Shown: positions 4,339 through 6,135 of the stretch, in pieces | Numbering within the stretch: position 1 is the stretch's first letter | Layout: each line of letters starts with the position of its first letter | Origin: a virus | Lineage: Duplodnaviria; Heunggongvirae; Uroviricota; Caudoviricetes | Strand: one strand, 5' to 3' | Virus record (IMG/VR): IMGVR_UViG_2690316149_000023 | Length of the DNA stretch: 8,663 nucleotides | Made by a program: the position numbers and the translations under genes | Notes under the pieces: model-generated | Told to the model about the DNA's origin: nothing | Database searches by the model: none | What the model saw: only the letters and a program-made list of their open reading frames with translations

Positions 4339-4364
4339 TTTTTACTGTAAAACCGTGGCCAATA

Positions 4365-5243
4365 TTACTTGACCACTACAAACGGCGTCAGCCCACCGTT
4401 ATAATGGTGAGGTCTGACGCTGTTGTAGTAGTTCAATATGTAATCATTAATTTGCTGCCGGGCCTCGTCCTTGCCTGCGTAACCATTCGTTGGCACCCAT
4501 TCTGTTTTCAGACTGCGGAAGAAGCGTTCCATGGGGCTGTTATCCCAGCAGTTTCCCCGCCGACTGACGCTTTGATTTATTCTGCAACGCCAGAGAAGTT
4601 GTTGATATTTAAGGCCTGTATACTGGCTTCCCTGGTCGCTATGGAACACGACATCCCGGGGTTGGCCACGCGTCTCATAGGCCATCCGCAGGGCACTGCT
4701 TATCAGTGCGGTATCGGCATGCGCTGACAGACTCCAGCCGATAACCCTGCGGGCAAAAAGATCCATAACAACCGCCAGATAGCACCAGCGATTTCCTGCC
4801 CAGAGATACGTAATATCTCCACACCATACCCGGTCTGGCTCCGGTACTGCGAACTGACGCTCAAGCAGATTCGGCAGGCTGGTATGCTCCTGACGGGCAT
4901 TTTTATACTGATGTTTTCCGGGCTGACAACTGCTCAGGTTCAGATATTTCATCAGACGTCCGGCACGGTAACGGCTCATCGGGACGCCGTTTTGAGTCAG
5001 CATTTCAGCCAGAGTGCGCGCGCCCGCAGAGCCCCGACTTTGGTTCCACGCCCGGCGTATTTCGCTGCACAACCTGACTCGTGCCGGATTAACCGTATCG
5101 CGTCGTTTTCGCCAGTACCGGTAACTGCTGCGGTGTATTTCCAGAGCAGAACACAGGCTGACAACCGTGTGGCTGTCACTTAGTCTGGCGGCTATCGTGA
5201 ACCGTTCAGCGAGTCGGACATTAAGAGCGCGGTAGCCTTTTTT
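4365..5243 (-). CDS. IS3-family transposase OrfB (DDE integrase-like catalytic domain), expressed as an OrfAB fusion by -1 frameshifting
   Basis: The frame is open from the slippery site to 4365 and sits in the -1 frame relative to orfA. The translation ([12 protein letters not shown] ... [28 protein letters not shown] ... HSDQGSQYT ... [19 protein letters not shown]) is typical of IS3-family OrfB. Confidence 0.85.
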
Positions 5244-5539
5244 AATATCGTATTTTGTTCCTCCAGACGGCGAACTTGCTTTTCCAGCTCGCGGATACGT
5301 TGCTGGTCTGGAGTAATGGGTGTGGCAGAGGGCGTAATACCCTGGCGCTCTCGCCTGAGCTGGCGTACCCAGCTCTCAAGCGTGGTTGAACCGACATTCA
5401 TCGCTTCACTGGCCTGTCGATATGAGTAGCCCTTATCAACAATCAGCTGTGCACATTCCAGCCTGAACTCAGGGGTGAAGGTTCGTTTGGTTTTCTTGTT
5501 CATTAAGTCACCTGTTTTGTGTTGTGGTGAGAATATCAC
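5192..5539 (-). CDS. IS3-family transposase OrfA (HTH and leucine-zipper regulatory protein), 115 aa
   Basis: [22 protein letters not shown] ... [18 protein letters not shown] closely resembles IS911 OrfA, including the C-terminal [13 protein letters not shown] segment. A6G slippery heptamer at 5237..5243 (minus-strand A AAA AAG). Confidence 0.9.
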
Positions 5540-5575
5540 CTTTCATCAGGTGGCCAAATTTAGTGTGCCACTACA

Positions 5576-6135
5576 TCCGCCTGTTATCGGCACTGTTGCC
5601 GCCCGGTCCGGCGTGGTCAGCCAGCGATCCGGCGATTGCCGGTGCGGCACCGTCATTAACCCGTGTTCATCAGCGTGCGGATGCCCTGATGCGGGAGCTG
5701 GATCCGCGCACCACCACCGAACTGATAAACCGCTGGGAGCGTCTGTGCGGCCTGCCGGATGAATGTATTCCCGCAGGGACACAGACCCTTCGCCAGCGTC
5801 AGCAACGGCTGGATGCGAAGGTTAACCTGGCGGGCGGCATCAACGAGGATTTTTATCTTGCACAGCTTGCTGCCCTGGGCAGACCAGATGCCACCATCAC
5901 GCGATACGACAAAAGCACCTTCACCTGCTCATCGGCCTGTACTGACGCGGTGAATGCGCCGGAATGGCGGTATTACTGGCAGGTCAACATGCCAGCTGCC
6001 ACCAACACCACCTGGATGACATGTGGTGATCCCTGTGATTCCGCACTGCGTATCTGGGGCGACACCGTTGTCGAGTGTGTGCTTAACAAACTCTGCCCTT
6101 CGCATACCTACGTAATTTTTAAATATCCGGAGTAA
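5576..6135 (+). pseudogene. P2 gpI / Mu gp48-family baseplate (tail) protein gene, 5'-truncated by the IS; only a few N-terminal codons appear to be missing
   Basis: Translation from the IS boundary begins [14 protein letters not shown]; the LLPxG motif sits at the extreme N-terminus of P2 gpI-like proteins, from memory. Gene position immediately upstream of the tail-fibre gene matches the conserved baseplate-then-fibre order. The ORF-track start (5524) lies inside the IS terminal repeat. Confidence 0.65.

Follow-up and report, generated by a model that had tools for sequence, protein, structure and literature searches.

An insertion-sequence terminus flipped in place marks a tandem duplication in the Pin-invertible tail-fibre region of a prophage remnant at ssrA

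We analysed an 8,663-nucleotide stretch of viral DNA (Caudoviricetes; IMG/VR record IMGVR_UViG_2690316149_000023), referred to below as the window. Near its centre, an insertion sequence (IS) lies between two truncated phage genes, the tail-fibre chaperone gene tfa and the gp48-like baseplate gene ymfQ, in an Escherichia coli prophage remnant next to the ssrA gene. Features were called by profile searches against Pfam and NCBIfam, and the transfer-messenger RNA (tmRNA) gene was called by ARAGORN. The window can be resolved into a direct tandem duplication of 3,076 bp with one compound join and one inversion, probably by the Pin invertase. A preliminary description had placed an IS3-family element between a truncated chaperone gene (U1/tfa) and a truncated gp48-like gene, and had taken the site for a rearrangement junction and not a simple insertion. 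The domain matches of the element, the end of tfa homology at 4338 and the end of the IS at 5575 agree with the first point. The second is borne out by the lack of a 3-bp repeat once the exact ends are used, and by the two flanks, which are not contiguous in related genomes. In Escherichia coli 602687 (L014 in our numbering), for example, the distance between them is about 1.9 kb, which becomes 3,076 bp with the IS included.

The truncated tfa belongs to a block that occurs twice in the window. The first copy (3303–4338, plus strand; Caudo_TAP) comprises the C-terminal tail-fibre segment Sv, which runs to 3780, and the first 562 nt of tfa (3777–4338), and is 99.9% identical to 6423–7458. It is followed by the IS and by ymfQ lacking its first 25 nt (5576–6135, plus strand; Phage_Mu_Gp48). 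Next comes a tail-fibre gene in which a constant part, Sc, is fused to Sv (6139–6900, plus strand; Collar domain), collinear with the 602687 locus, and then a full-length tfa of 201 amino acids (6897–7502, plus strand; Caudo_TAP, 111 bits). On the opposite strand lie an alternative chaperone gene, tfa', of 147 amino acids (7474–7917; Caudo_TAP) and a second tail-fibre gene in which Sc is fused to an alternative C-terminus, S'v (7920–8663). The latter is of the type found in 602687 and not of the type found in a second group of ssrA prophages (L004-type), and its Sc part belongs to the second copy of the duplicated unit. To the left of the first copy lies an intact gene for a serine invertase of the Pin/Gin type (2687–3241, minus strand; 184 amino acids; Resolvase, 175 bits; HTH_7, 53 bits), 99.9% identical to that of the L004-type prophage.

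The element between the two truncated genes belongs to the IS3 family. It has the two consecutive open reading frames (ORFs) of that family: orfA (5192–5503, minus strand) encodes a helix-turn-helix protein matching HTH_Tnp_1 (Pfam, E 9e-13), and orfB, with its stop at 4365 on the same strand, encodes the DDE/rve core, matching HTH_21 and rve (Pfam, E 5e-27) as well as the NCBIfam model transpos_IS3 (265.8 bits, with the cut-off at 160). The –1 frameshift between the two frames would occur at AAAAAAG, an A6G slippery site located at position 333 of the sense strand (window 5237–5243, minus strand), and identical copies of the IS are labelled 'programmed frameshift' in RefSeq. Full copies, which number in the thousands in E. 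coli, measure 1,258 bp and have the ends TGTAGTGG...CCACTACA. The TG...CA ends of the reference IS form imperfect terminal repeats, identical at 25 of 40 positions, and reference copies bear TGTAGTGG at both ends in inverted orientation. Undisturbed insertions are flanked by a 3-bp target duplication, ACC/ACC in tssF (L003) and CTC/CTC in a LuxR gene (L016). In its length, its ends and imperfect terminal repeats, its two reading frames with the A6G frameshift and the 3-bp duplication around independent copies, the family of the window element is like IS911 and other copy-out/paste-in elements. The ends and the OrfA C-terminus of the window IS presumably resemble those of IS911 closely. The window copy differs from such elements in being non-functional, with IS positions 1–53 inverted in place, positions 54–65 deleted and the end of OrfB altered.

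These defects are concentrated at the low-coordinate end, which the preliminary description had suspected of being degenerate or slightly truncated. Alignment to the reference IS corrects this view, as the terminal 53 bp are present but flipped. Window positions 4328–4380 (plus strand) are the exact reverse complement of IS 1–53, the terminus that carries the right inverted repeat (IRR). A filler dinucleotide, AA, follows (4381–4382), which does not match the IS flank of the 602687-type locus, and then IS 66–1258 (4383–5575, minus strand), 100% identical to the copies in PS1Thumoskin9 (L001) and 602687 and carrying the Pfam and NCBIfam matches given above. The 12 bp of IS 54–65 are missing. 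Other copies of the IS align to the window from 4383 onward only, because the flipped piece and the AA precede that position. The left inverted repeat (IRL), which ends at 5575 (minus strand), is intact, and the IRR now has the same orientation as the IRL, so that the window copy lacks terminal repeats in inverted orientation. In OrfB, the last 18 residues are replaced by 5. Since both the correctly oriented IRR and the last 18 transposase residues are lost, the window copy is, to judge from its sequence, dead and cannot move. It also lacks a 3-bp target duplication: the triplets at the boundaries first proposed are CCA and TCC, as had been noted, and the exact ends yield no repeat either.

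The flipped terminus also shifts the boundary with tfa. Homology to tfa stops at 4338, after 562 of the 606 nt of the gene and within codon 188 of 201, and the join lies 53 bp inside the flipped IS piece on 11 bases common to tfa and the flipped terminus (AACAGATACCA, 4328–4338). The interval 4339–6135 first given for the IS junction covers both the IS and ymfQ. The IS and the 3.5 kb around it have only about four distinct blocks of 11 nt or more in common. That the join falls on one of these indicates microhomology-mediated joining. The two novel joins, from tfa to the flipped tip and from the tip through AA to IS position 66, are 44 bp apart, and a single event fits this spacing better.

The architecture of the whole window becomes clear from its crossover sites. 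Three sites of the Gin/Pin type, each 26 bp long with two 12-bp half-sites around a 2-bp TT core, are present: ixA (3296–3321, plus strand; TTTTCATAAACG TT GGTTTGGGAGAA) with a pin-type outer half, ixB (6416–6441, plus strand; CTCTCGAAAACC TT GGTTTGGGAGAA) with an Sc-type outer half, and the inverted site ixC (8361–8386, minus strand; core TT at 8373–8374), also with an Sc-type outer half. The region thus has a serine recombinase beside the segment and inverted crossover sites flanking alternative tail-fibre ends, and Pin looks functional because its reading frame is intact and carries both the Resolvase and HTH_7 domains. Self-comparison of the window reveals a direct repeat (3303–4338 and 6423–7458, with one mismatch) and an inverted repeat (6139–6442 and the reverse complement of 8360–8663, 100% identical). 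The sole mismatch between the direct copies, G at 3307 and C at 6427, falls on the final base of the outer half-site and goes with the flank, G on the pin side and C on the Sc side. The ix sites therefore look authentic.

When the segment between the cores of ixA and ixC is inverted in silico, the window becomes collinear with the un-rearranged 602687 locus over 4,475 nt, from pin to IS position 66. After that position the inverted isomer continues with TT and the flipped IS 1–53, and then restarts at tfa nt 562, remaining 100% identical over 1,320 nt to the end of the window. In this A × C isomer, and in no other, the window consists of two direct copies of a 3,076-bp unit with one join and 11 bp of microhomology, the second copy being truncated by the window end. 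The inverted orientation seen in the window is bounded exactly by the Pin crossover sites. Because its endpoints are ix cores, it is attributable to the invertase and not to the IS. The invertible segment occurs in both orientations among PS1Thumoskin9, 602687 and CD45 (L015).

The join between the IS and ymfQ has a different history. The breakpoint lies at nt 26 of the intact gene, in codon 9; the preliminary description was right that the baseplate gene is truncated, while its placement of the breakpoint near codon 6 needs correction. The last four nucleotides of the IS (TACA) also match ymfQ, so that the position is ambiguous by 4 nt. The same junction, 100% identical, recurs at the ssrA locus of three complete E. 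coli genomes (PS1Thumoskin9, 602687 and CD45). The IS/ymfQ junction is inherited, judging from this identity. The locus order in the three genomes is ssrA, cargo, pinE, invertible segment, Sc, truncated ymfQ, IS and a ypjA fragment. The IS, at locus coordinates 8936–10193, joins the fragment of the ypjA/EhaD autotransporter gene to ymfQ nt 26. Its flanks differ (CAC and TCC), so that a target duplication is absent here too. On this ground, we read the ypjA/IS/ymfQ junction as an older IS-associated deletion that would have removed the whole prophage upstream of ymfQ. The IS-mediated deletion invoked in the preliminary description thus accounts for this older junction, but not for the new join to tfa.

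Three further copies of the same IS also lacked a target duplication, with the flanks TAA/TTC (L002), GAC/CCT (L017) and GTA/CAA (L018). With the three ssrA loci, this makes six of the eight copies examined (L001, L014, L015, L002, L017 and L018), and this IS thus appears to lie often at rearrangement junctions in E. coli.

Given this architecture, we hypothesized that the duplication arose by strand switching at the IS terminus, probably following a nick by the transposase, and that a Pin inversion came next. We give this reading a probability of roughly 55%. At the outset the locus was a decayed prophage with a Mu-like tail at ssrA that already had the IS/ymfQ junction. Its order was ssrA, cargo, pin, ix, the invertible segment (Sv and tfa opposite tfa' and S'v), ix, Sc, ymfQ lacking 25 nt, the 1,258-bp IS and its flank. 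In a first step, the 3,076-bp segment that begins at tfa nt 562, takes in Sv, ix, Sc and ymfQ, and ends at IS position 66 became tandemly duplicated, as the structure of the inverted isomer shows. Its join runs from the IS as far as position 66, through 2 nt and the inverted IS 1–53, the last 11 nt of which are common to tfa, and into tfa from nt 551 downward. Mechanistically, the transposase may have cut at the IS tip, the first chemical step of transposition, and left a free 3' end. This end would have paired with a tip-like repeat at IS 107–128, beside a hairpin formed by IS 66–105, and would have been extended or joined at the base of the hairpin, linking the two strands. Replication across the link could then have changed template, 3 kb back, at the 11 bp shared with tfa, and copied the segment a second time. 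In a second step, favoured by parsimony, Pin would have acted on the third crossover site supplied by the duplication and inverted the DNA between the two outermost sites, leaving a dead IS copy between the 5' part of tfa and ymfQ.

The proposed steps draw on what has been described for related elements. The first cleavage by copy-out/paste-in transposases affects a single strand at one end and generates a free 3'-OH (PMC7780238). Both 'sloppy' strand transfer and a switch of strands at microhomologies during copy-out have been proposed for rearrangements of the IS3 and IS30 families (bioRxiv 10.1101/2023.06.07.543989). Abortive copy-out with strand switching to short homologies has likewise been proposed for IS629 excision and deletions promoted by IEE (the IS-excision enhancer) and for the loss of ISApl1 from Tn6330. 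Those events delete the IS or adjacent DNA, whereas the event in the window duplicates 3 kb and leaves a flipped IS terminus.

Folding of the region around the join suggests why the strand might have rejoined where it did. IS 66–105 forms a strong native hairpin inside the 3' end of orfB, and directly after it IS 107–128 (TGTAGTAGTTCAATATGTAATC) is an internal repeat that resembles the IS tip (TGTAGTGGTCAAGTAATATTGG); hairpin and repeat together occupy window positions 4383–4445. In the predicted fold, the flipped tip pairs with IS 107–128, the last A of the tip with T107 and the first A of the spacer with T106 (window T4423), while the second A is bulged. At the base of the hairpin, G105 is the partner of C66, the rejoin point. 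In a scan of 1,121 possible rejoin positions, position 66 ranks first with a 1-nt spacer (difference in folding free energy –10.1 kcal/mol, z –5.9) and fifth with the observed AA spacer (–7.2 kcal/mol, z –4.3). In this folding model, the join looks guided by pairing. A more specific version of the proposal, in which the junction is the footprint of an aborted copy-out whose cut 3' end was captured by the tip-like repeat of the same IS and seeded a kilobase-scale duplication, seems to us possible but less likely than not.

Several points weigh against strand switching at the IS terminus followed by inversion. The order of the two events follows from parsimony only, and the arrangement in the window could be the primary one. 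The window ends at 8663, before the ymfQ copy, the full IS and the flank that the model predicts. The junction strings were not found in GTDB species-representative genomes, JGI metagenomes or IMG/VR, which leaves the structure without independent confirmation. The ranking of position 66 is post hoc, as it was computed after the hairpin had been noticed. Finally, the second A of the spacer is explained by no version of the model, since transesterification by a transposase adds no nucleotides. In further searches, the tfa/IS junction was found in none of 5,426 complete E. coli genomes, and exact-protein look-ups with the tfa-fusion ORF and two variants of the altered OrfB gave no match.

The alternative that survives best keeps the tandem duplication and the later Pin inversion but dispenses with the transposase: the join would be the product of pure template switching, as in fork stalling and template switching or microhomology-mediated break-induced replication (FoSTeS/MMBIR). 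At IS position 66 a polymerase would have come off its template, used the opposite strand for 55 nt (2 nt of flank and IS 1–53) and returned at the 11 bp in tfa. The microhomology, and an inverted copy drawn from within 67 nt of the first breakpoint, speak for such a process, of which short inverted copies are the known signature; the hairpin and the tip-like repeat would favour a switch here equally. The window resembles template-switch products and the tandem inversion duplications at quasi-palindromes in its microhomology, in the short inverted copy beside the breakpoint and in the hairpin or quasi-palindrome at the switch. The difference lies in the inverted piece, a 53-nt exact copy of IS 1–53 that ends at the exact tip of a transposable element. 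This points to an end made by a transposase and away from a random polymerase stall, and an inverted copy ending no more than 2 nt from the tip would be unlikely unless the tip were involved. Pure template switching requires the IS flank of the source strain to be TT, in which case the AA would be templated. The three genomes that are 100% identical to the window over the IS, ymfQ and the invertible segment have the flank CAC|TGTAG instead, and this flank does not template the AA. We regard pure template switching as rather unlikely, though it is the strongest competitor of strand switching from a transposase-made end.

If, instead, the arrangement in the window is primary, it could have arisen by a fold-back inverted duplication at the IS tip, of the tandem-inversion-duplication type, with a switch back in the invertible segment or at ix. 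An 11-bp microhomology deletion would later have removed one arm of the palindrome and left 53 bp. This scheme accounts for every segment of the window, and, as long palindromes are unstable in E. coli, there would be selection for deletion of one arm. However, the scheme calls for three or more separate novel events, against one compound join and one normal Pin inversion, and joins only 44 bp apart are better explained by one event. We consider it improbable.

An artefact has about the same small chance. The junction could be an assembly or amplification chimera, produced for instance by fold-back or strand displacement, in the consensus of a region made heterogeneous by the flipping segment. 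Its absence from the public collections searched would fit this view, and chimeras do form in vitro by annealing-primed fold-back at microhomologies. Against it stand the exact end of the flipped piece at the IS tip, the correct half-site composition at all three ix sites and the fact that a legitimate Pin inversion reduces the whole window to one clean duplication. Nor would misassembly of a flipping region create a new 44-bp junction sequence.

Homologous recombination between IS copies, or an adjacent deletion or replicative inversion mediated by the transposase, had been put forward in the preliminary description as the cause of the tfa–ymfQ arrangement and would suit the missing target duplication, the non-contiguous flanks and the older deletion marked by the same IS in L001, L014 and L015, yet it is very improbable here, because such events would leave a complete IS with its tip abutting the new flank, whereas the new join lies 53 bp inside a flipped piece, on 11-bp microhomology, with 12 bp of the IS lost, the net outcome is a 3.08-kb duplication and not a deletion, and the inversion endpoints are ix cores and not IS ends.

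Five further candidates were tried and rejected. A simple insertion with redefined ends is contradicted by the lack of a 3-bp repeat and by the flipped IRR. Insertion of a second IS copy into the first at 63–66 predicts the tip followed by TTC or TCC and then CGGCG, where the window has the tip, AA and then CGGCG. Transposase strand transfer with the tip-like repeat as recipient end predicts a join at 103|104, 3 nt outside position 107, and the join is at 65|66. 'Perfecting' of a quasi-palindrome from IS 106–128 predicts ...GAACTACTACAA, and the window has the exact complement of the IRR. Recombination at ix sites between two separate prophage loci was dismissed as well, since the L004-type and 602687-type prophages are alleles at the same ssrA site. 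Window positions 6–3324 are 99.94% identical to the L004-type prophage, the match stopping at ixA, and 4383–8379 are collinear with 602687 with one mismatch in 3,997 nt. A search for a genome that joins the cargo and pin type of the window to a 602687-type invertible segment found none closer than about 94%.

The duplication has consequences for the inversion system. In its Resolvase/HTH_7 invertase, its segment with two alternative tail-fibre C-termini and two chaperones, and its 26-bp sites with 12-bp half-sites and a 2-bp core, the window resembles the systems of Mu (G/Gin), P1 (C/Cin) and e14 (P/Pin). Two direct sites and one inverted site now form a three-site system with at least four possible isomers, in which one block holds the IS and the truncated baseplate gene. 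Multi-site inversion systems, such as Min of p15B, adopt several isomers, and the three sites of the window would allow the same. The window differs from p15B Min and from other Gin/Pin systems in that its third site is the product of a recent duplication rather than of evolved design, and from known invertible segments in that one of its blocks carries an IS and a truncated baseplate gene. A further difference is that the prophage is a remnant, in which switching is expected to have no phenotype. As the upstream tail genes are missing, none is expected from the rearranged locus either. The duplicate should be unstable, because the ancestral state would be regained by recombination across the direct repeats of 1,036 bp, and this expected instability is consistent with the absence of the structure elsewhere.

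The window is a real, well-defined structural scar assembled from known parts, an IS3-family element, a Pin-type invertible tail-fibre segment and a decayed prophage at ssrA, and it is functionally ordinary. It illustrates that recombination between IS copies should not be concluded from the lack of a target duplication alone, and that the action of a site-specific invertase can make a simple tandem duplication look like an inverted rearrangement. The finding of an IS terminus that is flipped in place and joined at a hairpin base, next to a tip-like repeat, may also be a sequence clue that transposase nicks can seed duplications nearby, a clue that matters only if more examples or experiments support it. 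Should this hold generally, duplications and fold-back rearrangements beside IS copies would have, in the single-strand nicks made by IS3-family transposases, an unrecognised origin distinct from both transposition and IS–IS recombination.

The remaining features of the window concern the prophage end. The ssrA tmRNA gene (40–402, plus strand; tag peptide ANDENYALAA) is a hotspot of prophage integration and lies in a smpB-ssrA context in the loci L004–L015. In many genomes, an intact prophage with a Mu-like tail occupies this site in the order cargo, pin, Sv, tfa, tfa', tail fibre, gp48, baseplate J and onward. Both ends of the window fall on boundaries of called genes, a 41-amino-acid ORF at 1–126 that is a called gene in L013 and, at 8663, the start codon of the minus-strand tail-fibre gene, which indicates that the sequence continues beyond the window in its source. 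The inverted repeat formed by 6139–6442 and 8663–8360 probably extends past the window end. Between ssrA and pin lies a gene of 502 amino acids (949–2457, plus strand), with no family match in Pfam or NCBIfam beyond a sub-threshold hit to LmuA of the Lamassu system (E 0.007, residues 368–485). It occupies the same position in at least 10 genomes, and 602687, CD45 and PS1Thumoskin9 hold three different hypothetical genes there. From its gene content, the interval between pin and ssrA seems to be a slot for variable cargo at the end of the prophage.

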